Shown: piece by piece, positions 4,480-40,153 of the stretch
How positions within the stretch are numbered: the first letter of the stretch is position 1
Layout: each line of letters starts with the position of its first letter
Assembly: GCA_017464845.1 (NCBI GenBank)
Contig: JAFTYD010000021.1
Coordinates: forward strand, 1 to 62,779
Source: Clostridia bacterium
GTDB taxonomy: Bacteria > Bacillota > Clostridia > Christensenellales > UBA1242
Direction: 5' to 3'
DNA length: 62,779 bases
The notes under the pieces: generated by a model
The model's input: the letters and a program-made list of their open reading frames with translations, nothing else
What the model was told of the DNA's origin: nothing
The model's database searches: none
Translations under genes and position numbers: made by a program

Positions 4480-5763
4480 TTATTTACCCATCAAACTATC
4501 ACGAGTTGCAGGGATAGTATGTCTGTAATAATCTTCTTTGTTTATGTAATTATATCTTCCACTACCAAGATAAGAGATAAGGTCATGATGACTAATTTCT
4601 TTCAAAGTATTGTCTTTCATATCAAGTTCAAGGTGATGTATTTTGTCAATGTTTTCTTGTTTAAAAGAATCGCCATAAGTTACAATCAAAGTTGGATACA
4701 AGGTTGTCTTTCCTTCAACTTTTTTGTTAATTATTGAAATAATAAAATTTCCATTTTGGATTTCAGTTGGGAAAAATTTTTTCATAATGTTGTTCACGAA
4801 ATCAATTTTATCCATACCTTCAAGTTTGATATTTTTTATCTTTGCATTGATTATATCAAGTTTGTCAACAATTGAAACTTCTTCTTTGCTTGATATGTTT
4901 TTGTATGCATCAAGGAGTTGATTAAATATCTTTCTATTGTCCATATTTTTTTCTTTTAAATCAGCGTAAACTTTTTCAAAAGATTCATTAAAACTTTGTT
5001 TGTTTCCTTTATGGTTAATAAGTTCAAGTCCGATAAGATTTGAATTAATTTTTGCTCTAAACAAATCGCCAGTAAGTACGCTTGTTATAGCATCGGCACT
5101 TACAATAAAATTGTCTGCTCTAAAAGTTAAGTTTGCATGGCCATTACCATAGAAACCTGTGCGTCTGTAATTGATACCTTGCATACTTAAAAGTTTTCCA
5201 AAGATTTGATTGAACTCATAACAAACGATTGTGTTATTGTTTTCATTTATACTCAAAAGTCGATTTATGTTTGAATGAATTTGAGCTGGTTCACCTGTTT
5301 GGTTATGAGCAAAAAACATTGGGTCATAGGTGAGTGTTTGGCAAAGTTTTATATAAGTATAAATTGCTTTTTCAAGTTTTGTGTAATCTTCTTTCATATC
5401 ACGAAAAATAAAGTTTACAAAGTTTTCATCAAGCAAAGTTTTTTCAAGATAATCATCGTTTGTTTTTGTTATGTGGTTGATGTATGAAGTATCATAAAAA
5501 GTATCGTTCTTTAAATCTTGAATAAAAAATTCTGCTTGAAAAGATAGTCTTGAATCATATAAAACTTTTTTGTCATCAACGAACCTTACAAGGATATAAG
5601 CAAGTTCGTTTTCTGTTATGTTAAATTTTTTACTTAACTCTCTCATTGTTTCAAAAAAATCATTTTCTTTATAGAAGATACCAAGAAGTTCTTCGCTATC
5701 AAAACATAATTCTTTTTCATCAATGGTTATGTAATATTTGTCGTTTAAAAAATTTTCTTTCAT
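4480..5763 (-). CDS. Hypothetical protein with putative transglutaminase-like Cys-His-Asp core (427 aa), paralog of 5826..7469
   Basis: Shares about 400 aa of collinear similarity with the upstream gene (LEKAIYTYIKLCQTLTYDPMFFAH / LEKSIYVYIQLCKTLTYDAEFFAH). Candidate triad: IVCYEFNQIFGKLL (Cys), GHANLTFR (His), VSADAITSV (Asp). Confidence 0.45.
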   Translation of the reverse strand: MKENFLNDKYYITIDEKELCFDSEELLGIFYKENDFFETMRELSKKFNITENELAYILVRFVDDKKVLYDSRLSFQAEFFIQDLKNDTFYDTSYINHITKTNDDYLEKTLLDENFVNFIFRDMKEDYTKLEKAIYTYIKLCQTLTYDPMFFAHNQTGEPAQIHSNINRLLSINENNNTIVCYEFNQIFGKLLSMQGINYRRTGFYGNGHANLTFRADNFIVSADAITSVLTGDLFRAKINSNLIGLELINHKGNKQSFNESFEKVYADLKEKNMDNRKIFNQLLDAYKNISSKEEVSIVDKLDIINAKIKNIKLEGMDKIDFVNNIMKKFFPTEIQNGNFIISIINKKVEGKTTLYPTLIVTYGDSFKQENIDKIHHLELDMKDNTLKEISHHDLISYLGSGRYNYINKEDYYRHTIPATRDSLMGK

Positions 5764-5825
5764 AAAATATTTCCTTTTTAAGTTTTAAAAAATCTTGTTC
5801 TGTATGGAAAGAAAATGTAAAAAAG

Positions 5826-7469
5826 TTAAATTGTGAAAAACATTCTATATTCGTTTTGGATACCTTTTAATCTTTGTGAGCAAGGTCCAATGTATAGATA
5901 GTTTTCTTTATTAAATTCTCTTTGCATTGTTGCTTGACTGTGAATTTCAAATGAATTTGTTTTTGTATCGAATTCAAAATATTTTGTATCTTTGTCATAC
6001 TTTGCATTTTTTGAATATTCAATAACAATTATTGGTAATAGGTCGTCAAATGTTGCACCTACTTTTTTGTTACAGATACAGACATTGAGTTGACCATTTT
6101 TAAATTCAGTCTGTGCAATTTTTTTTATGTTCTTTTCCACAAAAGTAATAACATCTATTGGTTTAAATTTTGACAATTTAAGTTTCTCTTCTAGCATATC
6201 AATTTTATCTTCAATAGAGATTTCAACAGGTTCAGATAAATTTTGATATGCGTTAAGTAAGTCTTTTGATAATTGTTGTCTATATATAGGTTCTTGTTTT
6301 TTTATGTCATTGTATACTTTTTCATAAGCTTCCAAAAACTCATTCAATGTGGTTGGATTGTCAGACATAAGTTTAAGTCCTTCCAAAGTTTCATGAACTT
6401 TTGCGTTATACAAATCTCCACCGATAATATGCGTAACAGAATCAGCTGAAACTAGGAACTTTCCAATTTTATAAATAACACTTGCGTGAGTTAAACCATA
6501 AGAACCAAAGTCATTTGTGTTTTCAAACTTAATACCAAGTTCATCTAAAAATTTTCCATAAATTTGAGAAAATTCATAGCACACAATTCCATTGTTTGAT
6601 GGAGTTATTTGAGATAGTCTTGTTATGTCTTCATGAATTCTTGCTTTCTTTCCACTTTGTTTATGTGCAAAAAATTCAGCATCATATGTCAATGTCTTAC
6701 AAAGTTGAATATATACATAAATTGATTTTTCAAGCAAACTATAATCTTCCGACATATCGCTGAAGATATAATCTACAAGGTCTTGATTTAAAAATGTTTG
6801 GTCAAGGAATGGGTCATTTGTTTCAGGGACTCGATTTATGTAAGATGTGTCAAAAATTTGGTCGCCTTTGATTTGTTTATAAAATCTCATATCATATTCT
6901 TCAAAATAGTACTTGTCAAAGATTTTATTTTTGTCAGCATATTGCTTCATAGCATAAGCGAGTTCATCATAGTCAAGGTTATACTTCAAACAAACATAAT
7001 CAAATTTGTCAAGAAGTTTATCATAGTCTTTGTTACCATAAAACAATTTCAAAATATCATAACTATCTATGCAATAGTTTTTACCTTCAATAACGATACT
7101 AAAGTTTGATTTGCTTTTTTGTTCTTGTTTTATAAGGTTACTAATAGAAGTTAGTTGCAAAAGCTTTTTTACATTCTCATCTTTTTTAATCTGACCACTT
7201 TCAACCATTTCATTTACAATATTAACAAAACGATTTATTGAATAAGTTTTTCCATCAAAATCTCTTTGGTTATCAAACTTATGGCCAATCTTGATTTGTT
7301 TGTTACCTTTTTCGATTATGCTAAACATATTTGAAACAAATTCAGGATTTTCAAATATCTTTTGAATAACCAAAGGGTAATAACCATAGTCATAATAAAC
7401 TGAAGTCATATCTTTTGTGAGAGATTGAGGAATTTCAATGCATATATCATAATAAGAATCCCAATACAT
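5826..7469 (-). CDS. Hypothetical protein with putative transglutaminase-like Cys-His-Asp core (547 aa), paralog of 4480..5763
   Basis: Same conserved blocks (GIVCYEFSQIYGKFL, LTHASVIYK, VSADSVTHI) plus an extra ~120-aa N-terminal extension. RBS AAGGAG. Confidence 0.45.
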   Translation of the reverse strand: MYWDSYYDICIEIPQSLTKDMTSVYYDYGYYPLVIQKIFENPEFVSNMFSIIEKGNKQIKIGHKFDNQRDFDGKTYSINRFVNIVNEMVESGQIKKDENVKKLLQLTSISNLIKQEQKSKSNFSIVIEGKNYCIDSYDILKLFYGNKDYDKLLDKFDYVCLKYNLDYDELAYAMKQYADKNKIFDKYYFEEYDMRFYKQIKGDQIFDTSYINRVPETNDPFLDQTFLNQDLVDYIFSDMSEDYSLLEKSIYVYIQLCKTLTYDAEFFAHKQSGKKARIHEDITRLSQITPSNNGIVCYEFSQIYGKFLDELGIKFENTNDFGSYGLTHASVIYKIGKFLVSADSVTHIIGGDLYNAKVHETLEGLKLMSDNPTTLNEFLEAYEKVYNDIKKQEPIYRQQLSKDLLNAYQNLSEPVEISIEDKIDMLEEKLKLSKFKPIDVITFVEKNIKKIAQTEFKNGQLNVCICNKKVGATFDDLLPIIVIEYSKNAKYDKDTKYFEFDTKTNSFEIHSQATMQREFNKENYLYIGPCSQRLKGIQNEYRMFFTI

Positions 7470-7645
7470 AATTGTATCTCCTTATAACTTATCTTTAATA
7501 TTAATATATATTATATAATAATCTATATTTGTTGTCAATAATGAAAAATTCTAAAGAAGGTATCGAAATTTATCTTTATGGGCAAAATAAGTGTATTTAA
7601 ATGACTAATATTGTACTTTAAATAATAATTCTACATTTTTACAGA

Positions 7646-7676
7646 GTGTAAGTCTGAAGCAATATGCGAAGAATCT
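7646..7676 (+). repeat. Copy 1 of a short interspersed repeat (GTnAnTCTGAAGC-N-GCGAAGAATCT family)
   Basis: gtgtaagtctgaagcaatatgcgaagaatct resembles 48391..48416 (same orientation) and the reverse complement of 50094..50123. Confidence 0.5.
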
Positions 7677-7773
7677 ACTTGATAAGTCATATTTTTGACA
7701 TGATATGAATATATTTATATTTTTTGTAACATTTTGTTTTGAATTTTAATAGATTAGTTATGTGGAAGGAAAT

Positions 7774-8754
7774 ATGAATATCGCTATTGTAGGAGCAACA
7801 GGCCTTGTTGGAAGAAAGATTATTGATATAATCGTTGAGAGAAATCTAAAAGTTGACAATTTTTTTCTTTTTGCAGATGAAAGCGAAAAGGATAGAAAGA
7901 TAAAGATTTTCAACAAAGAGTACTCGGTTGAAAGTTTATGTCTTGAAAATCTTAAAGGGAAAAAGATAGATTATGCATTCTTTGCCGTTGAAAGCGAAAT
8001 TGCAAAAAAGTTTGCACCTATCTTTGCAAGAAGAAAAATTGTCGTTATAGACAATTCCAACGCTTATAGAAGAATAAGCAAAGTTCCACTTGTTGTCCCA
8101 CAGGTAAACAAAGAAGACTTAAAAAAAGGTAAGTTTATCTTTTCCAATCCAAACTGTTCCACTATTCAATTAGTAACAGCTTTAAAACCATTGCATGAAA
8201 AATTTAAAATAAAAAGAGTTGTTGTTTCAACTTACCAAGCAGTATCTGGTGCTGGCAAAGGTGGAATAGACGATCTTTTGAAAAATACAACCAAAAAATT
8301 TATTTACCCAATTTGCAGGAATTTAATTCCACAAATTGACTACTTTAAGAAAAATAACTATACTAATGAAGAGGATAAGTTAATCTTTGAAACAAAGAAA
8401 ATTCTTTCATTCAAAGAACTTAAAATCACAGCAACAGCAGTACGAGTACCAGTGCTTAATTGTCATAGTGAAAGTGTGAATATTGAATTTGAAAAAAATG
8501 TAAATCTAAAGCAAATTAAAAGTGTGTTGTCAAATTCACCAAATATTGTTGTTTTAGATGATACATCAAAAAATATTTATCCTATGCCTATTGTAGCAGA
8601 TAACAAAGACGAAGTGTTTGTTGGAAGAATAAGAAAAGACTATTCAAAAGCAAATACCTTTAATCTTTTTATTGTTGCCGACAATTTAAGAAGAGGTGCA
8701 AGTTCAAATGCTGTGGATATATTTGAAAATTTAATAAAATTAAAAGGTAGATAA
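7774..8754 (+). CDS. asd: Aspartate-semialdehyde dehydrogenase
   Basis: MNIAIVGATGLVGRK NAD-binding start, active-site region SNPNCSTIQL, C-terminal DNLRRGAS. ATG 7774 is preferred over GTG 7762 because GGAAGGA sits 5 nt upstream. Confidence 0.9.
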   Translation: MNIAIVGATGLVGRKIIDIIVERNLKVDNFFLFADESEKDRKIKIFNKEYSVESLCLENLKGKKIDYAFFAVESEIAKKFAPIFARRKIVVIDNSNAYRRISKVPLVVPQVNKEDLKKGKFIFSNPNCSTIQLVTALKPLHEKFKIKRVVVSTYQAVSGAGKGGIDDLLKNTTKKFIYPICRNLIPQIDYFKKNNYTNEEDKLIFETKKILSFKELKITATAVRVPVLNCHSESVNIEFEKNVNLKQIKSVLSNSPNIVVLDDTSKNIYPMPIVADNKDEVFVGRIRKDYSKANTFNLFIVADNLRRGASSNAVDIFENLIKLKGR

Positions 8755-25594: not shown

Positions 25595-25673
25595 ATTCTT
25601 TTCTCCTTTTTGATAGTATAATGATAACATAAAACAAAATCAATGTCAATAATTCTTATTTAGAATAAGAAAA

Positions 25674-25703
25674 ACAAAAAAACACCTTTAATATAGAGGT
25701 GTT
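25674..25703 (-). terminator. Terminator of the 74-aa gene
   Basis: On the coding strand, AAACACCTC-loop-AAGGTGTTT followed by T7. Confidence 0.7.
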
Positions 25704-25709
25704 TAATTA

Positions 25710-25934
25710 TCAAGAAATCTTTTTAACAATGAAGTTGTGTTTATTGTCAGTAGATATCAAATCAAAGTTTGCTTTTTTAAGTTCTGCTTTTAAGATTGTA
25801 AGATTTGGGTCGTCAGACAATATGTTTTGATTAAAGCATACTTCCAATTCATTTGAAGCATTAAAAGTATTTGGTGAAGTAGTTAAATCGTTAATGAACT
25901 CATGTGCGAATTCAAGAGGTGTTTGTTTTTCCAT
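25710..25934 (-). CDS. Hypothetical small protein (74 aa), chromosomal copy; ~89% identical paralog inside the element at 32116..32340
   Basis: RBS AAAGGAG. MEKQTPLEFAHEFINDLTT... is near-identical to the second copy. Confidence 0.6.
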   Translation of the reverse strand: MEKQTPLEFAHEFINDLTTSPNTFNASNELEVCFNQNILSDDPNLTILKAELKKANFDLISTDNKHNFIVKKIS

Positions 25935-26001
25935 AAATTTACTCCTTTAAATAATTTTAGCATAAAGAATAAATAAAAACAAATTATTAGTAAAGAAAAC
26001 A

Positions 26002-26081
26002 AAAAAAAGACTAGAATGAATCTAGTCTTTTTCATTTGGTAGCGTAAACTGGGTTCGAACCAGTGACCTCATGGGTATGAA
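26002..26081. repeat. attL: 80-bp perfect direct repeat (3' 45 nt of tRNA-Met plus its downstream terminator hairpin)
   Basis: aaaaaaagactagaatgaatctagtctttttcatttggtagcgtaaactgggttcgaaccagtgacctcatgggtatgaa is identical at 40042..40121. Confidence 0.9.
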
Positions 26082-26200: not shown

Positions 26201-27298
26201 TTAGTTACACATTAATCTTTTTATTTCATCTCCAAGTGAATTAACCATATTAAACATATTTTGGTTAATTGAATTTCTTGTATAGATATTTTTTGTTATT
26301 TGTATATCTGAATGTCCCATAATTTTACTTTTATTAATTATAAGTTCTTCATTATCTCTTATAAGTTGACTAAATGTATGTCTTAAGTCATGTTCTCTCA
26401 TATTTATATTATGTTTGCTTAATAAGTAATCATGAAATTTATGTGTAAAATAATCTGGTTTAATTTCGTTTAAAAATAAATTTGAACATACTTGTATATC
26501 TGGAAAATAGTTATTTTTATGTTCAAGTAATTCTTCTTTTAAAAAATTACTTAAAGGAATTGCTCTTTTACTTGATTTAGTTTTTAATGACTTTTTTAAA
26601 TAACTTTTTCCATTTGTAGTTATCATATTGTTTTTAAAATAAATTATATTGTTTTCAAAATCTATATTTTCCCATGTTAAACCTAATACTTCTCCTCTTC
26701 TTGCTCCAGTCATTACGGCAATAAGGGTTGGTATATATAGGTTATAGTAATTAGTTTTTAAGTCTTTTAATATTGTTGCAATTTCTTCAAGTTCTAATGT
26801 TGTTGATTCAAATTCTTCTTCATCTTCTTTATAATTTAATTTTTTTATATTGTTTGATGAAATGTAATCATAATTTACTCCCCAGTTGATTACAGATAAA
26901 ATGTATGTAACATAGTTTTTAACAGTTTTCTTTTTTAAACCTTTATTTTGATATTCGTCAATAAATTTTTGCAAAGCTCTTGTTGTAATATCTTTAACTT
27001 TAACTTTACCAAAATATGTTCTAGCAATATTTCTATCAAGTTTATAAACAGTGTTTAATGTAGTAGGAGATAGTTTGTTTTTTCTTTCTTCGAATCTTAA
27101 ATCATCTAACTTATTAAATGTAATATCAATAAAATCGCCTTTAACTTCATATTCAAGTTCTAATGCAAGTTTTTTAGCAGTAGTTAAACCAGAAATGTTA
27201 GAAACTTGTTTTGTTTGTGTTTTACCAAATATATCTTTTTTACCCCATGCTCTAACTCTATATTTCCCATTTTCTTGCAGTTCAATTTTATATGACAT
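26201..27298 (-). CDS. Tyrosine site-specific recombinase (phage integrase family)
   Basis: C-terminal catalytic blocks TGARRGEVLGLTW (Arg), HDLRHTFSQL (H-x-x-R) and GHSDIQITKNIYT (His...Tyr). Adjacent to attL. Confidence 0.9.
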   Translation of the reverse strand: MSYKIELQENGKYRVRAWGKKDIFGKTQTKQVSNISGLTTAKKLALELEYEVKGDFIDITFNKLDDLRFEERKNKLSPTTLNTVYKLDRNIARTYFGKVKVKDITTRALQKFIDEYQNKGLKKKTVKNYVTYILSVINWGVNYDYISSNNIKKLNYKEDEEEFESTTLELEEIATILKDLKTNYYNLYIPTLIAVMTGARRGEVLGLTWENIDFENNIIYFKNNMITTNGKSYLKKSLKTKSSKRAIPLSNFLKEELLEHKNNYFPDIQVCSNLFLNEIKPDYFTHKFHDYLLSKHNINMREHDLRHTFSQLIRDNEELIINKSKIMGHSDIQITKNIYTRNSINQNMFNMVNSLGDEIKRLMCN

Positions 27299-27869: not shown

Positions 27870-28469
27870 TTATAAACTTCTTCTGATTTCAACTGCAACT
27901 CCTATAATTCTTACGGGTGTATCTAATATTTCTTGATTTGTATAAAAAGTTGGTTTAAATTCGTTGTTTGAATTATGAGGTAAGATCCAAATTCCGTTTG
28001 GGTCTTTTTTTATTTCTTTTAAAGTAGCGTCATATCCGTTTATCATAACAACACAAATTTTACCACTTTCAGCATCGTCTTGTTGACGGACTATAACAAC
28101 ATCTCCGTTTTTAATGGTAGGAAGCATAGAGTCTCCTTTTACTTTCAAAGCAAAATATTCTCCTCTTAAGGCCATTTCTTCAGAAATCTCTTCATAATCA
28201 AGAATTTCTTCAATTGCTTCAATAGGTATTCCTGCAGGAATTGTCCCAAGTACAGGTATTTTTTTTGCTTTATTAGTTGGAGTTATTTTTCCTAGTAAAT
28301 TATCTGTTGTTGTGTTAAAAAATTCTGCAATTTTTGTTAATGTTTGTAAATCTGGTTCGCTTCCTCCAGTTTCATACATTGCTATTGTTGATCTTGAAAT
28401 TCCTATACATTTTGCTAATTTTTCTTGTGTTATTCCTTTTTGTGTTCTTAGTTGTTTTAAATTTATCAT
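27870..28469 (-). CDS. LexA/CI-like repressor (XRE HTH + S24 peptidase domain)
   Basis: N-terminal HTH (ITQEKLAKCIGISRSTIAMYETG). C-terminal GDSMLPTIKNGDVVIV (Ser nucleophile) and downstream ATLKEIKK (Lys). Confidence 0.9.
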   Translation of the reverse strand: MINLKQLRTQKGITQEKLAKCIGISRSTIAMYETGGSEPDLQTLTKIAEFFNTTTDNLLGKITPTNKAKKIPVLGTIPAGIPIEAIEEILDYEEISEEMALRGEYFALKVKGDSMLPTIKNGDVVIVRQQDDAESGKICVVMINGYDATLKEIKKDPNGIWILPHNSNNEFKPTFYTNQEILDTPVRIIGVAVEIRRSL

Positions 28470-29059: not shown

Positions 29060-29932
29060 ATGAACATAAATGAATTGATGGTTAAAGAAGAAGGTGTACT
29101 TACATTTAGACAAAAATTTTTTTTGAAAGTACATACAAGTATAATGACATCTGGTGCTGTAATAAGTAATGCATTGTTAGATTTGGCTAAAAATTTAAGA
29201 GAAATGAAAGAAGAGGAATTGTATCTTGAAGTTGGTTTTAAAACATTTGATGATTATTGTGAACAAGTTTGTGGTTTAAAATCAAGGCAGGCTTATAACT
29301 ACATAAAAGTATTTGATGATTTGGGAGAGGAATTTTTGCATTCAAATGCAAAAATTGGAATAAGTAAATTGACTCTTTTAACAACATTATCTGAGGGGGA
29401 GAAGATTGAAATTTTTGATAATGTAGATATAGAGGGAATTTCTGTTAAAAAATTAAAACAAGAGATTGAGGATCTTAAGAAAAGAAATAAAGTTCAAGAA
29501 GATGTTGTGTATGAAAAAGATAAATTAAAGCAGGAAGTTGTAATATTAAAAGCAAAAATAAATGAACTTAAGAATCAAAATCCAAAAATAGTTGAAGTTG
29601 AAAAAGACAATTCTGAGAATTTTAAAAAGAAATTATTAGATTTAGAATACAAATTAAGAATAACTAAAGATCAACTAAAAGATAAAGAAAAAAATCTAGA
29701 TGAACAGTTACGAAGTAAAGATTTAGAAATTGAAAAATTGAAAACGTCTTATAATATTCTTTCAAAACAAGTTCAAATAAATAGTTCTGAAGAATTAGTT
29801 GAATTTAAGATGAAATTTGATGATTTACAAAAAATTGTTATTTCTCTTAAGAATTTAATTTTAAGGCTTCCTGAAGATAAACAAGAAGGTTGTAAAAATG
29901 CTTTAAAAAAGGTGGTAGAAGTTTTATGTTAA
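29060..29932 (+). CDS. Hypothetical coiled-coil protein, DUF3102-like N-terminus (290 aa)
   Basis: N-terminal region (LDLAKNLREMKEEELYLEVGFKTFDDYCEQVCGLKSRQAYNYIKVF) resembles phage/ICE DUF3102 proteins. Long Lys/Glu coiled coil. Confidence 0.4.
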   Translation: MNINELMVKEEGVLTFRQKFFLKVHTSIMTSGAVISNALLDLAKNLREMKEEELYLEVGFKTFDDYCEQVCGLKSRQAYNYIKVFDDLGEEFLHSNAKIGISKLTLLTTLSEGEKIEIFDNVDIEGISVKKLKQEIEDLKKRNKVQEDVVYEKDKLKQEVVILKAKINELKNQNPKIVEVEKDNSENFKKKLLDLEYKLRITKDQLKDKEKNLDEQLRSKDLEIEKLKTSYNILSKQVQINSSEELVEFKMKFDDLQKIVISLKNLILRLPEDKQEGCKNALKKVVEVLC

Positions 29933-30225
29933 AAGATGAATTTTTAGATATGATGAAACAAGATTTAGTTACTAAAAATGATAAAAATTTATATCAAGTT
30001 TTAGAAATTTTTGAAAATATTTTGAAAGATTATCCTAGTACATTGAATATCGATTCTAGTAAAAGTATAGAAGAGTGTTATAAGAATATGGAAAAATATG
30101 CTAAAAGTCATGCAAAAAATGGTTGCTATTGTTTCTCTGGAGTAGAATCTACTAACTTTATAATTAACTATTTTGGTTTAAAAAAACAAGAAAATATTTT
30201 TTTGAAATTAGAAGATTTTATATAG
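29926..30225 (+). CDS. Hypothetical protein (99 aa)
   Basis: ORF overlapping the upstream stop, within the same-strand early gene block. Confidence 0.45.
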   Translation: MLKDEFLDMMKQDLVTKNDKNLYQVLEIFENILKDYPSTLNIDSSKSIEECYKNMEKYAKSHAKNGCYCFSGVESTNFIINYFGLKKQENIFLKLEDFI

Positions 30226-30232
30226 TTTTGTT

Positions 30233-31570
30233 ATGAGAAAATATACTTTAAATTATTATTTAGAATTTTTGGAAGAACAAAATTCTAAAAAGTTTTTAAA
30301 TAAATTAAAAAAATATATTAATAATGTAATACCGAAAATAGAAGAGCGATATAAAAAATTATCAAAAGCTTTTTTAATTGATTATGTATCAAGATATGAA
30401 GATTTTTATATGATTACAACTTATAGAACTGATAATTTATTGCCTGTAGGGATTAATATAATCAGGTATAAAAATGGTAAGAAAATTGAACAGTTCTATA
30501 GACAGGATTTTATTAATTATTTTAGTGCTGATACATATTGGCTTAGGGGTAAGATGAATTACTTTACTAAAAGATATCTTTATTGTGATAACTTAAAGGA
30601 ATTATTTAAAGAATCTGAATTTAATTATAGTGAAGTTTGGAATTTAGGTAAAAAGATTGATTTAAAGATAAGACATCTTTTATATTTCTGTGAAACAAAA
30701 GAAATTAAAGTTATTGAAAGTTTAACTAAGATAGGTTGTTATAAACTTGCAAGAGATATTATGAATGGGAAATATTCAATAATAGATTGTAAAGATTTAG
30801 TTAAGTCTTTACGAATTCCTGATAAGAATTTTTTAAAGAAAATAAAACAAGAAGATTTTGGAGCATATTCTTTAATCATTTATAAAAGATTTTTAGATCT
30901 TTCTTTACCAGATAAATATTTCAAGTATTTAAAAGGTTTTTTTAAATCTTATTATAATCTTGAAAGATTTGATGGCTTTACACATAAAGCTTTTGTTGAT
31001 TATTATCTTGAACAGATAAAACAAAAGTTATATAAAGGTTGTTTTTGTTATTTTTATCAAGATTATCGAGATTATATTTTTGTTGGGAAAAAGTTAAATT
31101 ATAATTTTAAAGATTCAAAATTTTATAGACCATTTAATTTTAAAGTTGCTCATGATAATGCAGTAAATAAATTAGATTCAGTTAAAAATAAAGAACTGTA
31201 TTCAAAAGTTAATAAAGAACTAAGAAAATATCAATGTTTAAATTTCGAAGATAAAAAATATTTAGTTGTTATGCCTATAAAAGCTGAAGATATTATTACT
31301 GAAGGTCAACAAATGATGAATTGTGTTGGATCATATTTAGGAAGAATTAAAGATAAAAAATCAATAATTTGTTTTATTCGTAAAATTGAAGAAAGAGACA
31401 AAAGTTTTTATACATTAGAATTAAATCCAAAGGATTTTAAAGTGGTTCAGTGTAGAGGTTTTCATAATAATCCTACATCGGAAGAATACCAGGTTAAAAA
31501 GTTTGTAAGTAAGTGGTTAAAAGAAATTGTTGAAAAAAATGTTATGAAATTATCTAGAGAGGGATTATGA
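30233..31570 (+). CDS. PcfJ-like protein (445 aa)
   Basis: C-terminal EGQQMMNCVGSYLGRIKDKKSIICFIRK...FYTLEL...VVQCRGFHN matches my recollection of the PcfJ-like domain. Confidence 0.45.
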   Translation: MRKYTLNYYLEFLEEQNSKKFLNKLKKYINNVIPKIEERYKKLSKAFLIDYVSRYEDFYMITTYRTDNLLPVGINIIRYKNGKKIEQFYRQDFINYFSADTYWLRGKMNYFTKRYLYCDNLKELFKESEFNYSEVWNLGKKIDLKIRHLLYFCETKEIKVIESLTKIGCYKLARDIMNGKYSIIDCKDLVKSLRIPDKNFLKKIKQEDFGAYSLIIYKRFLDLSLPDKYFKYLKGFFKSYYNLERFDGFTHKAFVDYYLEQIKQKLYKGCFCYFYQDYRDYIFVGKKLNYNFKDSKFYRPFNFKVAHDNAVNKLDSVKNKELYSKVNKELRKYQCLNFEDKKYLVVMPIKAEDIITEGQQMMNCVGSYLGRIKDKKSIICFIRKIEERDKSFYTLELNPKDFKVVQCRGFHNNPTSEEYQVKKFVSKWLKEIVEKNVMKLSREGL

Positions 31571-31793: not shown

Positions 31794-32087
31794 ATGGCAT
31801 TATATAAAAAACAACTTTTTGTAAAAACAAGAAAAGGTATATGGAAATGTAAAGAATGTAAGATAGAGAAGATACCTTGTAGTGAAACTTTTTGGAAAAA
31901 AAGTAATTTAATTGAAAAGAAATCTCAAATTGGAGAACACACTTATCTTACCTTTGTATATTCAAAGAATGGATTTGATAAGATTGTTTCAAAAGCTATT
32001 ACTTATTTTGGTAAAAATGAAAAGGTAATAAGAGAATTAATAACTACATCAAATGTTTTACCAAAGTCTTATAAGGGCATGAAATAA
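31794..32087 (+). CDS. Hypothetical protein (97 aa)
   Basis: RBS TAGGAGA. Possible Cys pair (CKECKIEKIPC). Confidence 0.45.
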   Translation: MALYKKQLFVKTRKGIWKCKECKIEKIPCSETFWKKSNLIEKKSQIGEHTYLTFVYSKNGFDKIVSKAITYFGKNEKVIRELITTSNVLPKSYKGMK

Positions 32088-32115
32088 AAAAACACCTAAT
32101 GTAAAGGTGTTTAGT

Positions 32116-32340
32116 TTAAGAAAGCTTTTTTACAATGAAGTTGTGTTTGTCGTTTGTTGGTATCAAATCAAAATTTGCTTTTTTAAGCTCTGATTTTAAG
32201 ATTGTAAGATTTGGGTCGTCAGACAATATGTTTTGATTAAAACATACTTCTAACTCATTTGAAAGATTGAAACTATTTGGTGTAGTAGTTAAATCATTAA
32301 TGAATTCATGTGCGAATTCAAGTGGTGTTTGTTTTTCCAT
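32116..32340 (-). CDS. Hypothetical small protein (74 aa), element copy of 25710..25934
   Basis: 66/74 identical residues. The promoter and terminator flanks are also homologous. Confidence 0.6.
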   Translation of the reverse strand: MEKQTPLEFAHEFINDLTTTPNSFNLSNELEVCFNQNILSDDPNLTILKSELKKANFDLIPTNDKHNFIVKKLS

Positions 32341-32463
32341 AAATTTACTCCTTTAAGTAATTTTAACATAAAGGAAAAATAAAAACAAATTACTGATAAA
32401 AGAAATTTAAAAGTCGAGCAAATAAATAGTATTTGTAATTAAAAAAAAATAATAGGGAGAATT

Positions 32464-32655
32464 ATGAGATATAGTACAAAAAGAATATGGGGTACAGTAT
32501 TTTTATTTATTGGAATAATTATTTTATCATTAATAATTACCTCATTAGTTTTAGCTTCCATTCATGAAAATTCACTTGTTTCTGAATGGAAAAGTTGGTT
32601 TGGTCTTATGAAATTAGTAAAAGAACCAGTTGTTTCTTTAATGTTAAAAAAATAA
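32464..32655 (+). CDS. Small single-TM protein (63 aa)
   Basis: RBS AGGGAGA. TM segment WGTVFLFIGIIILSLIITSLVLA. Confidence 0.5.
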   Translation: MRYSTKRIWGTVFLFIGIIILSLIITSLVLASIHENSLVSEWKSWFGLMKLVKEPVVSLMLKK

Positions 32656-32670
32656 ATATAGGAGATTTCT

Positions 32671-34038
32671 ATGAGAAAAATAATTAACTTTATATTGATA
32701 TTGTTACTTATTCTTAATTGTTACTCTCCTGGTATAAATACAGCTTTTGCTGATGTAGATAGTGGTGTATATACAAATATACTTGATGATTTAGAAAAAG
32801 ATAAAAATTTTAAAAAAGAAGATTATCCATTAATTGAAGAAGATTATTCTTTACAGTTAATTCAAGTTGCAGAAAGTGAAAATAAAGAATTATTTATTTA
32901 TGTGTATCAACCTAATGGAAATAAAGATATTGTCGCAACTTATATTAATATGAGTCTAAATTCTGAGTTTACTAATCCATCTTTATATTCTTTAAAATTA
33001 CTTAATTATACAGGTACATTGTTTAAATATAAAGTCAATAGTATTGAGATAGATTTTGATTCGGTAAGATATTACAATATTGCCTCTATATTTAGAGATT
33101 TTATTCCAGATATTGATGAAGATGTAGATTCAAATAATACAATTAATTCAGTAAGTTTTGAAGTTGGCCAATTATGGGCTTTATCGTTTGATGATAATAA
33201 CAATTTGGTTTCTGAAATGCAAAAAACAGAAGTGGTTACTATTGTTGATAAATATGTTGGTTTCTTAAGATATAATAGTGATAATTTTTGGACTGGAAAA
33301 AAATGTGATGTTCACTTTGTAGCTTTTTCTACCGATTATAAAATTGATGAATTATATGAAGTAGATATTAGATATATTACTAAGAAATATAAGACTACTA
33401 CAGATTTAGGTATTCTTATTGAATCTTATGAATCAGGAACTAAATATGATTCTTCTATTACTCATGTTGAAACATTAACTTCTGATGAAAGTATTGATGC
33501 TACTTTAGGTTTTATAATTAAAGAAAAATATAGTTGGGATATGATTTCTACTTCAGAAAAATTTATAGAAGATAGAGAAAAAGAGAATATACAATTTAGT
33601 TCTTCTGCAAAAAAACAAATAAAAGATAAAGAATGGGTATTAAATTTTTATATTTCAGATTATAAAAAATGGAATGATCGTGTAGCAGGAACTCCTGTTG
33701 TTTCTTTTGAGACAGGAACTAAGGTTGAGCAGGTTACTTTACTTAGATTAAAATTTAAAACTGATGGTAAAATTTATAATTTAGGTGTGGTTGACAATAT
33801 ACAAACTGGAAGTGATACTCCTTCAGGTATTGGTTATACATTATTAGACTTAATAAAAAAAATACTAGATTATTTAAAAAATAATTGGTGGTGGATATTG
33901 TTAAGTGTTTTAGGATTTATTATTTTAATACCATTATTACCAATAATTATTCCATTGTTATTTAAAGGTATAAAGTTGTTATTTAAAGGATTGTGGTGGC
34001 TTGTAAGTACACCATTTGAAATATTTAAAGAAAAATAG
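32671..34038 (+). CDS. Secreted protein with N-terminal signal peptide and C-terminal TM anchor (455 aa)
   Basis: MRKIINFILILLLILNCYSPGINTAFA signal. C-terminal WWWILLSVLGFIILIPLLPIIIPLLF. This is the topology of filamentous-phage pIII-type proteins. No sequence family recognised. Confidence 0.55.
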   Translation: MRKIINFILILLLILNCYSPGINTAFADVDSGVYTNILDDLEKDKNFKKEDYPLIEEDYSLQLIQVAESENKELFIYVYQPNGNKDIVATYINMSLNSEFTNPSLYSLKLLNYTGTLFKYKVNSIEIDFDSVRYYNIASIFRDFIPDIDEDVDSNNTINSVSFEVGQLWALSFDDNNNLVSEMQKTEVVTIVDKYVGFLRYNSDNFWTGKKCDVHFVAFSTDYKIDELYEVDIRYITKKYKTTTDLGILIESYESGTKYDSSITHVETLTSDESIDATLGFIIKEKYSWDMISTSEKFIEDREKENIQFSSSAKKQIKDKEWVLNFYISDYKKWNDRVAGTPVVSFETGTKVEQVTLLRLKFKTDGKIYNLGVVDNIQTGSDTPSGIGYTLLDLIKKILDYLKNNWWWILLSVLGFIILIPLLPIIIPLLFKGIKLLFKGLWWLVSTPFEIFKEK

Positions 34039-37274: not shown

Positions 37275-38183
37275 ATGGTTAGAAAATTTAATGATGTGTT
37301 CGATTTGAATAAACGAATTGGGAAAATGCTTATATGTGGAGTAGAAGGTTCTGGAAAGACTTTACTTTCTACATATATTGGTATTCAAAAAATGTTAAGA
37401 GGTCAGGAAGATTGTTGGAAGTCTTTTAAAGAAATAGATAATATAAATAAATTAGGTTATACTTTTTCTAAAAACTTTGAACATTTGTTATTTTCTAATT
37501 ATGATATGAATTGTAAAGGTACTTATGTACCTAATCGTAAAACAAATTTACTAGATCCATTTAAGGTTGGGTTGGTATGTAAAAATTATGAAACAGTACC
37601 ATTACCACCATATTCCTTTTTAATAATAACAGAAGCTCAAAGAGTTTTTAATGCGTATATGTGGCAATATTTAAGAGCTGAAGTTCGAGCATTTTGGGAA
37701 ACATCAAGGCAAGCTAATATAGAAATAATACTTGATACAAATCAACCTGAATTAATTTATAAAGGTATGAGAGAATTGTTAAATCGAATAATTTATTTAT
37801 ATAAAGATACAGAAGAGGTAATAGATAAAGAAGGGAATGTTAAAGGTCATAGACTATACATTAAAGAGTTTAAAAAGTATAAATACCTAGAAAAGTATCT
37901 TGAGAATTCTAATGAAAATTTAGTAATGGACACATATATTTTAGAATTAGTTGGTTGTTTGTATTCAAATTATGATTCTTATCAATGTAAGATGTTACAT
38001 TTAAATGGTAGAACAGATGATGATTATAATATTGCAAAGTTCCCAGATATAAAAACTATTGAAGATGTTGAAATGTTTGCAGAAAATTTTGGATTATATC
38101 CTCCAGAAGGTTATTATGTTAAACCTTCAACAAATGTAAAACAAAGTAATAATAAAGAAGAAATTATAGGAGAAATATTTTAA
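37275..38183 (+). CDS. Zot-like P-loop NTPase (candidate filamentous-phage pI-type morphogenesis ATPase)
   Basis: Walker A GVEGSGKT (37338-37361) near the N-terminus. Walker B-like FLIITEAQRVF. SRQANIEIILDTNQPELIYKGMRELLNRIIYL resembles the HRHxGxDIxLxTQ...IR block of Zot/pI. No TM segment seen. Confidence 0.55.
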   Translation: MVRKFNDVFDLNKRIGKMLICGVEGSGKTLLSTYIGIQKMLRGQEDCWKSFKEIDNINKLGYTFSKNFEHLLFSNYDMNCKGTYVPNRKTNLLDPFKVGLVCKNYETVPLPPYSFLIITEAQRVFNAYMWQYLRAEVRAFWETSRQANIEIILDTNQPELIYKGMRELLNRIIYLYKDTEEVIDKEGNVKGHRLYIKEFKKYKYLEKYLENSNENLVMDTYILELVGCLYSNYDSYQCKMLHLNGRTDDDYNIAKFPDIKTIEDVEMFAENFGLYPPEGYYVKPSTNVKQSNNKEEIIGEIF

Positions 38184-38557: not shown

Positions 38558-38615
38558 TTTAATTTATAAATTGTTTTTTTTGTTTATTAGTAATAATAAT
38601 AAATTGGTGTGGTAT

Positions 38616-38719
38616 TGTGGTAAACTCATAGAGTTTTCCATCAATTCCAGTCAATGTGGTTAACTCGTTGAGTTATCCAAAGTTATCCATATTTCCACAT
38701 TTTGTGGTAATGTGGATAA
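38616..38719. promoter_or_regulatory. Cluster of DnaA-box-like 9-mers
   Basis: Perfect TGTGGATAA (38711-19). One-mismatch boxes TTATCCAAA (38673-81), TTATCCATA (38683-91) and TGTGGTTAA (38655-63). Weaker TGTGGTAAA (38616-24) and TGTGGTAA (38703-10). Confidence 0.55.
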
Positions 38720-38794
38720 CTGGCATTGACCGAAGCGCCATAAAAAAGACCTTAGAAAATACTTCGTAGTTGTATTAAAAATACAAATATGATA

Positions 38795-38832
38795 GACACA
38801 GTCTAAGGTATAGTATTACCTTAGACTGTGTC
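38795..38832 (+). promoter_or_regulatory. Putative rolling-circle origin stem-loop carrying TAGTATTAC
   Basis: Perfect 16-bp inverted repeat GACACAGTCTAAGGTA / TACCTTAGACTGTGTC around loop TAGTAT. TAGTATTAC (38811-38819) spans the loop and the first 3 nt of the 3' arm. Lies 115 nt upstream of rep. Confidence 0.65.
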
Positions 38833-38912
38833 GCATTGTCGCATGATACTATTTTATAGATGTTTTTAAACATTTTAAATTGTCGCATTGATGTCGCATT
38901 ACTGTGTCGCAT
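38829..38912 (+). repeat. Five direct TGTCGCAT iterons adjacent to the stem-loop
   Basis: Copies at 38829-36, 38837-44, 38881-88, 38892-99 and 38905-12. The first overlaps the 3' arm of the hairpin. Two copies extend to ACTGTGTCGCAT. Confidence 0.8.
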
Positions 38913-38946
38913 ATAAAAATTGTTCATTTTTAAAGGGGGAATAAAA

Positions 38947-40026
38947 GTGGATGAAATTGAGATTATTGATTTTGATGAAAGTAAATTAAATAGTCAAAGT
39001 AGAAGATGGATGTTGACTATAAATAATCCAGTCCAATCTGATGAAGAAATAAAAGATTATGTTGAAAATTTAGAACATTTTAAATATTGTATGTTTCAAA
39101 GGGAGAAAGGTAATGAAACTGGGACTATTCATATTCAGATGTTTATAATTTTTTCAATTGGCAAGAGATTTAGTACTATAAAAAATTATTTTCCGACAGC
39201 TCATATAGAACAAGCAAAAGGAAATAATGCTCAGTGTAGAGATTATTGTTCTAAAACAGATACTCGTATTTCTGATAATTATTATGAACTTGGTAAGTTT
39301 GCAGAAGAAAGAGCAAGAACTGATATTACTAATTTCATGCAATTGGTTGAGGCTGGAGCATCTGATTATGAATTAAAAAAATTGTATCCTAAACTTTTTT
39401 TAGATTATTTTCATAAACTACCAATTATTAGAATGACTACTGATATTGATTATTCAAAACAGGATAGAGATATTGAAGTTATATATGTTTATGGTAAAGC
39501 TGGTAAAGGGAAAAGTACCTATGTAAAAAAAGAAACTATTAATGATAGAGTTTTTAGGGTTGATACATTTGATTTATCAGCATTTTCAAATTATCAAGGA
39601 GAAAATGTTCTTGTTATTGATGAATTTAAAGGTCAATTTAAAATACAAACATTAAATAAATTACTTGATAGCTTTCCAGTTAAGTTAAGAGGGTTAAATA
39701 GTTTAGTTTTTGCAAGATATACAAAAGTTTATATAATTTCAAATTTTCATTATAAAGACCTGTATAAAGATGAGCAAGTTGAGAATATAGACCAGTATAA
39801 AGGTTTTGTGCGAAGACTTCATAGGGTAATTAAACTTGTAGATTATAAATTACCACCAATAATTGAAAGAGATACAATCTTTGAAGATATACCAAATGAG
39901 GAATTAATTCCATTTGGAAGAAAGAAAAGAATAAATAAGGTAATAGAATATAATAATGGAGTACCTCGTATAACTTATGATATTGATTTTTCAGAAATAC
40001 AAGTAGATAAATTAGATATTATATAA
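38947..40026 (+). CDS. Rolling-circle replication initiator: HUH endonuclease + SF3 helicase, CRESS-DNA-virus-like Rep
   Basis: Motif I WMLTINN (39007-27), motif II HIQ (39130-38), motif III YCSK (39244-55). Walker A GKAGKGKS (39493-516), Walker B VLVIDEF, motif C IISN. GTG 38947 lies 6 nt after AAAGGGGGA and is preferred to TTG 38920. Confidence 0.85.
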   Translation: MDEIEIIDFDESKLNSQSRRWMLTINNPVQSDEEIKDYVENLEHFKYCMFQREKGNETGTIHIQMFIIFSIGKRFSTIKNYFPTAHIEQAKGNNAQCRDYCSKTDTRISDNYYELGKFAEERARTDITNFMQLVEAGASDYELKKLYPKLFLDYFHKLPIIRMTTDIDYSKQDRDIEVIYVYGKAGKGKSTYVKKETINDRVFRVDTFDLSAFSNYQGENVLVIDEFKGQFKIQTLNKLLDSFPVKLRGLNSLVFARYTKVYIISNFHYKDLYKDEQVENIDQYKGFVRRLHRVIKLVDYKLPPIIERDTIFEDIPNEELIPFGRKKRINKVIEYNNGVPRITYDIDFSEIQVDKLDII

Positions 40027-40043
40027 AATTAGATATTATATAA
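40010..40043 (+). repeat. Perfect 17-bp tandem duplication AATTAGATATTATATAA x2 at the rep stop / attR junction
   Basis: Copy 1 at 40010-40026 contains the rep TAA. Copy 2 at 40027-40043 runs into attR. The AATTAGATAT core also occurs at 36286. Confidence 0.8.
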
Positions 40044-40121
40044 AAAAAGACTAGAATGAATCTAGTCTTTTTCATTTGGTAGCGTAAACTGGGTTCGAAC
40101 CAGTGACCTCATGGGTATGAA
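40042..40121. repeat. attR: 80-bp perfect direct repeat overlapping the intact tRNA-Met 3' end
   Basis: Identical to 26002..26081. Confidence 0.9.
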
Positions 40122-40153
40122 CCATGCGCTCTAACCAACTGAGCTACTACGCC
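40077..40153 (-). tRNA. tRNA-Met (anticodon CAT), elongator type
   Basis: 77-nt cloverleaf: acceptor GGCGTAG/TTACGCT, D arm GCTC-AGTTGGTTA-GAGC, anticodon arm CATGG-TTCATAC-CCATG, T arm ACTGG-TTCGAAC-CCAGT, encoded CCA. The anticodon arm resembles Bacillus elongator tRNA-Met. Confidence 0.9.

Follow-up and report, generated by a model that had tools for sequence, protein, structure and literature searches.

In the porcine circoviruses (PCV), the replication initiator protein (Rep) binds hexamers beside the right arm of the stem-loop, cuts between a T and an A by means of the tyrosine in motif III, and uses those same hexamers to repress its own promoter (PMC2690592), and the reading of origins by circovirus Reps remains an open question (PMC8780604). 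A plasmid origin, that of pMV158, has a nick hairpin, a proximal pair of repeats, an A-T tract, and, 84 bp from the nick, a distal set of three repeats, which serves as the high-affinity site; the proximal and distal repeats cooperate in extrusion of the hairpin (PMC1851628). The two-domain Reps of bacteria were defined as groups pCRESS1-9 (CRESS, circular Rep-encoding single-stranded) by Kazlauskas et al. (2019), who regarded the elements encoding them as integrated plasmids without viral structural genes, rooted the CRESS-type Reps in those of the pMV158 type, and listed Zot beside one pCRESS2 Rep in a table, the origins themselves not being analysed (PMC6668415). Finally, Tisza et al. (2020) reported circular genomes that join a CRESS-type Rep with an inovirus coat protein and ZOT, and noted similar prophages in bacteria (PMC7000223). 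Here, we describe a stretch of 62,779 nucleotides (nt) from a Clostridia bacterium (contig JAFTYD010000021.1 of assembly GCA_017464845.1, hereafter the window) in which the segment 38795-38912 is, on comparative grounds, very probably the plus-strand (double-strand) rolling-circle origin of a temperate, filamentous-phage-like element of 14,040 bp inserted in a transfer RNA gene, tRNA-Met.

At the heart of the locus is a hairpin whose 16-bp arms (38795-38810, GACACAGTCTAAGGTA, and 38817-38832) are 100% complementary and enclose the 6-nt loop TAGTAT, so that the nonanucleotide TAGTATTAC occupies 38811-38819 at the hairpin apex. Both features had been placed at exactly these positions by a first-pass annotation made from the sequence alone, which also reported that the module lies just upstream of a CRESS-like rep; the likely GTG start of that gene does indeed lie 114 nt past the hairpin and 34 nt past the last of the direct repeats (iterons) that follow it. 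The features of the origin and its initiator are as follows.

38795..38832, + strand: nick-site hairpin of the proposed plus-strand (double-strand) origin, with a perfect 16-bp stem and a 6-nt loop; homologous hairpins occur at 79/91 loci
38811..38819, + strand: nonamer TAGTATTAC, with the Rep cut predicted at T38817/A38818 from circovirus biochemistry (PMC2690592)
38829..38844, + strand: proximal iteron pair, 2 x TGTCGCAT, period 8
38845..38880, no strand: A+T-rich spacer (86% A+T) between the iteron clusters; the spacers of relatives are similarly long
38881..38912, + strand: distal iteron cluster, 3 x TGTCGCAT at 38881, 38892, and 38905
38947..40026, + strand: rep, a two-domain initiator of 359 amino acids (aa) with an HUH nuclease and a superfamily 3 (SF3) helicase, identified by Pfam and alignment
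Rep aa 21-28: motif I, WMLTINNP
39130-39138: Rep motif II, H62-I-Q64
39244-39255: Rep motif III, Y100-C-S-K103
Rep helicase motifs: Walker A G183-S190, Walker B D225-E226, motif C N266, and arginine finger R290

The hairpin is the longest perfect short-loop inverted repeat of the window. All of the remaining palindromes of at least 12 bp are terminators built of A-runs and T-runs, arms of a kind that the hairpin lacks, and the maximum palindrome among 30 random sequences was 12 bp. When folded as single-stranded DNA (ssDNA), the hairpin reaches -16.3 kcal/mol, compared with -3.7 +/- 1.7 for shuffled sequences (z = -7.6; 0/200 shuffles equal). The nonamer, which occurs only once in the window, is not significant by itself (0.56 copies expected; at least one copy in 42/100 shuffles), and it owes its weight to its position at the hairpin apex and its conservation among relatives. 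As for the iterons, five identical copies of TGTCGCAT are found on the + strand (38829, 38837, 38881, 38892, and 38905), against an expectation of 0.39 copies for the whole window and a maximum of 2 in 100 shuffles. The first-pass annotation had counted these five copies correctly, and was likewise exact in starting them inside the 3' arm, with which the first copy shares 4 nt. The array is not a single run; it is bipartite, with two abutting copies, a 36-nt spacer, and then three copies spaced 11 and 13 nt apart. The distal cluster thus starts 44 nt after the proximal one, and its last copy forms part of a repeat of the 12-mer ACTGTGTCGCAT from the arm/iteron junction.

The same arrangement recurs in relatives. 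In all of the first 13 loci collected, with Reps 31-67% identical, TAGTATTAC is present a single time, on the coding strand and a short way upstream of rep (13/13). A wider census took in bacterial-type loci for which 150 nt or more of upstream sequence was available, 80 metagenomic loci having been added to the first 13, and found the NAGTATTAC hairpin upstream of rep in 79/91 of them. The first-pass annotation had offered homologues without a conserved hairpin or nonamer as grounds for abandoning its claim, and these counts point the other way. Overall, 77 distinct hairpins were recovered, with perfect stems of 6-19 bp, compared with a mean best stem of 2.7 bp and a 99th percentile of 6 bp in shuffled flanks, such that the stems lie far beyond the shuffled null despite the anchoring of the census on perfect stems. 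The nonamer is TAGTATTAC in 59/77 of the distinct hairpins, and the loop sequence is kept down to 30% Rep identity. Moreover, among 56 distinct bacterial-type hairpins, all four types of Watson-Crick pair are found at each of the 10 loop-proximal positions, and 96.6% of cells are paired, compared with 34-54% when the partner is slid. Pairing was counted from the loop outwards; a MAFFT alignment of the hairpins was gapped inside the stems and was therefore not used.

In its longest form, the window's hairpin pairs T7-A8-C9 of the nonamer with G-T-A of the 5' arm, and the first-pass annotation had rightly drawn attention to this pairing while treating it as a departure from the viral pattern. 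Within the family, it is not unusual: most relatives have loops of 10-11 nt with the nonamer unpaired, and because 16/77 of the distinct hairpins have loops of 7 nt or less, a paired 3' end of the nonamer is a recurrent family trait rather than an anomaly.

Iterons, too, keep their place while changing their sequence. In 30/33 related origins, a tandem repeat pair with a period of 7-8 nt begins within 6 nt of the end of the 3' arm, and the close relatives carry two proximal copies and 2-4 distal ones, the latter 45-70 nt beyond the arm, immediately ahead of the ribosome-binding site of rep. Depending on the lineage, the iteron reads TGTCGCAT, CGTCGCAT, TGACGCAT, or TGTAACAT, its position relative to the 3' arm being preserved, and overall similarity between Reps does not predict the type of iteron. 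In a set of 11 close relatives, a single alignment column separates the iteron types, namely Rep residue 72, eight residues past motif II, which is G where the iteron is TGTCGCA or TGTAACA and S where it is TGACGCA. Three independent switches between G and S were seen, between pairs of Reps that are 78%, 71%, and 58% identical. The first-pass annotation had proposed to look for covariation of Rep determinants with iterons; residue 72 may track iteron sequence, a correlation that is suggestive only. In the wider family, the same short stretch of Rep differs between iteron types, where the groups may simply be clades. For the Reps of eukaryotic ssDNA viruses, specificity determinants beside motifs I and II were reportedly proposed by Londono et al. 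in 2010.

The Rep itself matches Viral_Rep (PF02407, 2e-14) and the SF3 domain "RNA_helicase" (PF00910, 3e-6) of Pfam. Its likely GTG start at 38947, which aligns with the ATG of relatives, lies behind AAGGGGG (38933-38939). Ten residues (H62, Q64, Y100, C101, K103, G188, K189, E226, N266, and R290) are invariant across a 23-sequence alignment of Reps. The closest solved structure is full-length PCV2 Rep (7lar; E 2.9e-19, residues 18-274, both domains), followed in the Protein Data Bank by nuclease domains of PCV2 and nanoviruses, and 190 homologues were found in a large protein collection. Four of these homologues (P0022, P0026, P0034, and P0045), of ~435 aa, possess an extra N-terminal segment of ~90 aa that holds a second motif-I-like RRYMITINNPFWE, with the regular motif I position being degenerate. 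At the other end of the gene, an exact 17-bp tandem duplication (40009-40042, AAATTAGATATTATATA x2) spans the rep stop codon and reaches the first base of the flanking attachment (att) repeat.

On the precedent of the circoviruses (PMC2690592), the origin would work as follows. Inactivation of an S24-type repressor would allow the integrase to excise the element through its 80-bp att repeats, giving what is assumed to be a circular duplex. Rep would bind the TGTCGCAT iterons as duplex DNA, the three distal copies probably serving as the high-affinity loading site and the two proximal copies positioning the protein on the 3' arm, and its binding on supercoiled DNA would help the inverted repeat to extrude or melt. 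The HUH nuclease (here H-I-Q) would then cut the + strand at TAGTATT/AC, between 38817 and 38818, with Tyr100 becoming joined to the 5' phosphate, while a host polymerase would extend the 3'-OH and the SF3 helicase of Rep would unwind the duplex. After one round, Rep would cut the regenerated origin and join the ends, thereby releasing a circular + strand with the same sense as all of the phage genes. This circle could be converted to duplex again, probably from a hairpin block at 38608-38723, or be exported by way of a Zot-like ATPase. Replication in the manner of CTX-phi, without excision, was considered unlikely because of the single TAGTATTAC in the window, the integrase, and the intact att sites.

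A further possible effect of Rep binding at the distal iterons is repression of the rep promoter. The distal copies may overlap a putative rep promoter (TTGATG at 38888, an 18-nt spacer, and TATAAA at 38912), and at the equivalent place, the relative L175 has TTGACG, a 17-nt spacer, and TATAAA, which supports the promoter reading for the window.

The spacer between the iteron clusters (38845-38880) contains TATAGATGTT in the window, and a (T)ATAGCG(A/T)TT-like motif is found there in L175, L176, L006, L177, and L009. This motif resembles the TAGCGT "CS-6" element of ssoA origins, although it could instead be bound by a host factor or belong to a promoter.

Origin and rep occupy the right end of the 14,040-bp insertion, whose other principal features are these.

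26002..26081, no strand: attL, an 80-bp exact direct repeat comprising the displaced 3' part of tRNA-Met and its terminator
26201..27298, - strand: tyrosine integrase (Pfam PF00589, 8e-16)
27870..28469, - strand: repressor of the CI/LexA-like kind, with a helix-turn-helix (HTH) domain and an S24 peptidase domain (phrog_4, 7.8e-42)
37275..38183, + strand: Zot/pI-like P-loop ATPase of the filamentous-phage assembly/extrusion type, a tentative assignment from Pfam Zot and PHROG
38608..38723, + strand: three imperfect hairpins of the TGTGGTAA..C / G..TTATCCA type, in the same intergenic region as the origin, from a repeat search and ssDNA folding
40042..40121, no strand: attR, the second 80-bp copy, overlapping the 3' 45 nt of tRNA-Met (40077-40153, minus strand)

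The two att repeats are identical at 80/80 positions. From 28.6 kb to rep, open reading frames (ORFs) of at least 70 aa are all on the + strand, with the exception of one 74-aa ORF (32116-32340), and the element also encodes a PcfJ-containing accessory module and several membrane proteins. Because the flanking chromosome encodes Spo0A (236.6 bits) at ~27% G+C, together with a pyruvate formate-lyase activase, the host is a spore-forming, low-GC Firmicute of the Clostridia-like kind and not a eukaryote. The Zot-like protein scores 23.1 bits to PF05707 against a cut-off of 20.3, matches phrog_197 at 2.7e-5, and shares 24% identity with the Zot of bajarodino virus 56, itself scoring 84.7 bits to Pfam Zot. 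A first iteration of a Zot profile drifted onto the P-loop of the Rep helicase; when rerun with the Rep ORFs excluded, a stable profile united 34 Zot-like ORFs, including those of the window and of bajarodino virus 56.

Contigs with the closest Reps (56-67% identity) share synteny with the element, in the order integrase, repressor, small ORFs, two large membrane proteins, a Zot-like protein, a protein of ~125 aa, an intergenic region of 350-470 nt, and rep; in L006 and L175, for example, the syntenic repressor gene combines HTH_3 with Peptidase_S24. One relative, L176, is a contig of 8,395 nt with integrase, repressor, structural genes, origin, and rep, and because it has a 30-nt terminal overlap and starts (1-44) with the 3' fragment of a tRNA, it is probably an excised free circle carrying attP. 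A scan of a genome collection yielded only one relative, L001, and IMG/VR yielded only CRESS-type genomes of 2-7 kb at 24-33% identity, which served as an outgroup. Among GenBank phages, similar Reps (~31% identity) were found only in the "bajarodino viruses" and a few small viruses from rodent faeces. Bajarodino virus 56, a circular faecal genome of 5.7 kb, encodes a strong Zot match, a coat-protein-like ORF, and a two-domain Rep, and has the same origin.

Several further features of the element deserve mention. The accessory module (29060-31570), which consists of a DUF3102/ParB-N-like protein, a 99-aa protein, and the PcfJ-like protein, has the repressor on one side and the structural genes on the other; in L009-L012, the same module is found downstream of rep (L009 11052-14208), and L002 and L006 are without it. 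Because its position varies between the window and L009-L012 and because it is missing in L002 and L006, the module behaves as a mobile cassette within the window's phage family. Between this module and the structural genes, ~335 nt from just outside attL (25672-26006) are repeated inside the prophage (32082-32412) at 88% identity; the repeat includes a bidirectional terminator and the 74-aa minus-strand ORF, and its homology ends at the start of the att repeat. It could have been left behind by an older, related element that occupied this tRNA, or be flanking DNA that was captured. Next follow a single-pass membrane ORF of 63 aa (32464-32655), conserved in L002 with the motif HxNxLVxEWxSWFG, and, directly after it, a 455-aa protein (32671-34038) whose signal peptide and C-terminal anchor give it a pIII-like layout. 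The 63-aa ORF occupies the position of the coat gene in bajarodino virus 56, with neither similarity to that gene nor a PHROG match, and a 124-aa ORF upstream of the origin showed no similarity to the RstB-like protein of the same virus and no Pfam or PHROG match.

Between the Zot-like gene and the origin, the region 38558-38790 folds as ssDNA to -42.3 kcal/mol (z = -8.2), and it contains the block of three hairpins, with units of the form TGTGG(T/A)AA..C / G..TT(A/T)TCCA. A similar block is present in L009 and L176 and not in L002, L006, or L175, which have G+C-rich sequence at that place. The block is a candidate minus-strand origin and/or packaging signal, as judged from its sequence and folding.

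Going beyond the origin itself, it is plausible, and no firmer than tentative, that the element is a functional temperate filamentous phage carrying the entire eukaryotic CRESS-type module in cis and in trans, with an iteron layout intermediate between those of pMV158 and the circoviruses, that it is a counter-example to the statement in a taxonomy commentary of 2026 that a two-domain Rep is not observed in known viruses outside Floreoviria, and that the structured motif RF03070 of Rfam is a DNA origin and not a small RNA (sRNA). A number of points weigh against the proposed origin or this larger reading. The function of Rep and origin rests on comparison for the element and its close relatives alike. 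The scissile bond would be exposed only if the top three pairs of the stem (two A-T and one G-C) were opened, and a promoter scan of the iteron region called no + strand promoter. The hairpin census sought NA[G/T]TATTAC with perfect stems of at least 6 bp only, a registration that somewhat favours pairing. The window scores 29.3 bits to RF03070 over the whole length of the model (E 0.001-0.004), below the gathering threshold of 41.5. With regard to the phage, the Zot assignment of 37275..38183 is weak, and no major coat protein was identified in the window's element, so that virion production is no more than putative and the prophage could be defective.

The most serious rival keeps the same origin mechanism and sees the element not as a phage but as a rolling-circle plasmid that has integrated, or as an integrative element of the mobilisable or conjugative kind (ICE), with an origin that serves maintenance or transfer. 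Kazlauskas et al. (2019) class such Rep-bearing elements (pCRESS1-8) as integrated plasmids, the PcfJ-like module is typical of plasmids and ICEs, and no coat protein was found in the window's element. Relatives speak for it too: of 54 loci with enough upstream sequence, 28 have no Zot-like gene and 22 have one within 3 kb upstream of rep, and plasmid p4M has an origin of the same type (TAGTGTTAC, GTACCA x2). In L169, a true RF03070 member, the locus at 4968-8242 comprises two serine recombinases, HTH regulators, the origin, Rep, and an overlapping 453-aa FtsK/SpoIIIE ATPase in place of a Zot-like gene, and L139 and L141 are likewise without one. Against this stand the Zot-like ATPase of the window's element and its gene layout of the filamentous-prophage kind, on one strand with small ORFs and membrane proteins; the stable profile that its Zot-like protein shares with the Zot of a virome-derived inovirus genome; and the circular genomes in which a CRESS-type Rep is joined with an inovirus coat and ZOT (Tisza et al. 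2020). On balance, a plasmid or ICE seems rather unlikely, and the filamentous-phage reading is retained. Because RF03070 members (L169, and also L139 and L141) sit in an element of the FtsK/SpoIIIE type, the origin-Rep cassette is common to two element types, one with Zot and one with FtsK.

It is improbable that the origin is a relic in a decaying prophage, right in ancestry and bereft of function. The internal 88% copy of the left chromosomal flank and the accessory module, placed differently from that of relatives, do suggest rearrangement, and the lack of an identified coat protein is in keeping with decay. However, the stem is perfect, the five iterons do not differ from one another, rep is an uninterrupted ORF that retains all of its catalytic residues, and the att repeats, at 80/80 positions, indicate recent integration.

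A structured RNA, such as a 5' leader regulating rep, is a very remote prospect. In its favour, RF03070 is typed as an sRNA gene, the window matches it at full length, below threshold, on the rep strand, and distant relatives score 66-73 bits. Yet the loop is the exact nick-site nonamer of this Rep family's HUH enzymes, the partner gene encodes an HUH nuclease-helicase, perfect Watson-Crick stems of up to 19 bp (in a census that scored perfect stems only) permit extrusion on both DNA strands, and the repeats behave as lineage-specific protein-binding iterons that track a Rep residue. The authors of the RF03070 motif are said to have suspected single-stranded DNA themselves, hence the "ssNA" of its name. 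Finally, a chance palindrome or intrinsic terminator is effectively refuted by the comparative data: a terminator scan did flag the hairpin on the minus strand, with a T-rich tail after it, but no minus-strand gene enters it, no + strand T-run follows it, its arms lack the A-runs and T-runs of all other long palindromes in the window, and its loop is conserved to 30% Rep identity.

As to novelty, the type of module is already catalogued, through RF03070, the pCRESS2-like Rep, and the CRESS-Rep inoviruses, the main elements having been reported in 2017-2020. The pMV158-like layout of 2 + 3 iterons and the correlation of G72 and S72 with iteron sequence appear to be new, in that neither was found described in the literature searched; the occurrence of the same cassette in Zot-type and FtsK-type elements likewise appears new, and no description of a link between RF03070 and the CRESS-type nick site was found in that literature. 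The wider interest of the locus is that a complete origin of the eukaryotic CRESS-virus kind, with the exact TAGTATTAC, the hairpin, and Rep-specific repeats, and not the Rep alone, occurs in bacterial mobile elements and is under selection there, including in elements with filamentous-phage morphogenesis genes. This bears on the origins of CRESS-DNA viruses and on the two-domain Rep as a realm-level hallmark. RF03070 would gain a concrete, testable function as a DNA origin, and close Reps with differing iterons (TGTCGCAT, TGACGCAT, and TGTAACAT), together with G72/S72, would offer a bacterial system for the code of Rep-origin specificity. If the interpretation is true, the bipartite layout would be cis-element evidence for a plasmid-to-virus scenario, and a functional phage with a two-domain Rep would be the counter-example to the Floreoviria statement of 2026.

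How, then, does the locus compare with systems already described? The "ssNA-helicase" motif RF03070 (Weinberg et al. 2017, PMC5737381) resembles it in having an 11-bp hairpin with the loop uUAGUAUUA, followed by UGUAGCA twice, upstream of a gene with a helicase domain. Five relatives with Reps 31-33% identical (L139, L141, L147, L163, and L169) score 66-73 bits to this model, immediately upstream of rep. In the window, the repeat is TGTCGCA and the stem is longer, and the Rfam model is without the distal cluster; what Rfam types as an sRNA gene is here read as a DNA replication origin.

The pCRESS2 (and pCRESS3/p4M) elements share with the window a two-domain Rep, integration into tRNA genes between att repeats through a tyrosine integrase, and hosts of the Clostridia type. 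By BLASTP, the window's Rep scores 134-164 bits to pCRESS2, 89-115 to pCRESS3, and 51-81 to pCRESS1 (8 representatives from a trimmed alignment, as similarity scores only), and it thus appears nearest to the pCRESS2 group, although the sampled pCRESS2 Reps are 31-36% identical and the window's element differs in having the Zot-like ATPase. In p4M, a Bifidobacterium plasmid (L179, NC_003527), the sequence GTGGGCGG-caTAGTGTTAC-CCGCCCAC at ~2725-2785 is followed by GTACCA GTACCA, directly before repA, with a nonamer, TAGTGTTAC, that is one position off the canonical form.

Inoviruses with CRESS-type Reps (ctbe30 and ctbc27, and bajarodino viruses such as PQ006124) also combine a Zot-type ATPase, a two-domain Rep, and the TAGTATTAC hairpin, and bajarodino virus 56 has TGTCGCA-type repeats as well. 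Their Reps are ~31% identical to that of the window, and they are free circles of 5-10 kb with a recognisable coat protein and an RstB-like gene, whereas the window's element is integrated, larger, and equipped with integrase, repressor, and PcfJ, and lacks any coat or RstB gene that can be recognised. The annotation of PQ006124, the one GenBank record examined, includes neither a stem-loop nor an origin feature, and the text of Tisza et al. 2020 does not mention the nonanucleotide (PMC7000223).

With respect to phage organisation, the window's hairpin block and nick site together recall the intergenic region of the Ff phages. In Ff (f1/M13), one intergenic region joins the packaging and minus-strand hairpins with the plus-strand nick site, and the packaged strand is in the gene sense. 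The initiator gpII and the origin sequences are unrelated to those of the window, and Ff has neither the nonamer, nor such an iteron array, nor a helicase domain.

Similar in the working of the origin are the circoviruses (PCV1/PCV2) and nanoviruses, which, like the window, have a stem-loop with (N)AGTATTAC and direct repeats immediately 3' of its right arm. In circoviruses, as here, rep lies downstream on the same strand, and Rep possesses an SF3 helicase besides motifs I-III, the second of which ends in Q (PCV2). The window differs in that it comes from a bacterium, within a 14-kb integrating prophage that has no jelly-roll capsid gene and, by Pfam and PHROG, no capsid-like match; in its loop of 6 nt, compared with 10-12 nt; in its scissile T7/A8, which does not lie unpaired in the loop as in CRESS origins; and in showing no evidence for a spliced Rep'. 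Circoviridae and Nanoviridae are characterised by circular ssDNA of about 1-2 kb per molecule, a jelly-roll capsid, and a eukaryotic host, and taxonomic membership fails because of host, size, and gene content. The "circovirus/nanovirus-style" origin of the first-pass annotation is thus borne out, by comparison, as to its mode of working and not as to its affiliation, which is with a bacterial prophage. Its likening of the repeats to the Rep-binding repeats of circoviruses was right in that they adjoin the stem-loop. Nevertheless, circoviruses have four contiguous hexamers, while the window has octamers in two clusters 44 nt apart, and in this, it stands nearer to pMV158 (RepB), whose nick is TACTACG/AC, whose distal repeats are 11 bp long and unlike the proximal ones, and whose RepB has no helicase domain; the resemblance, which is one of layout only, covers the hairpin, the proximal pair, the A-T tract, and the distal triplet.

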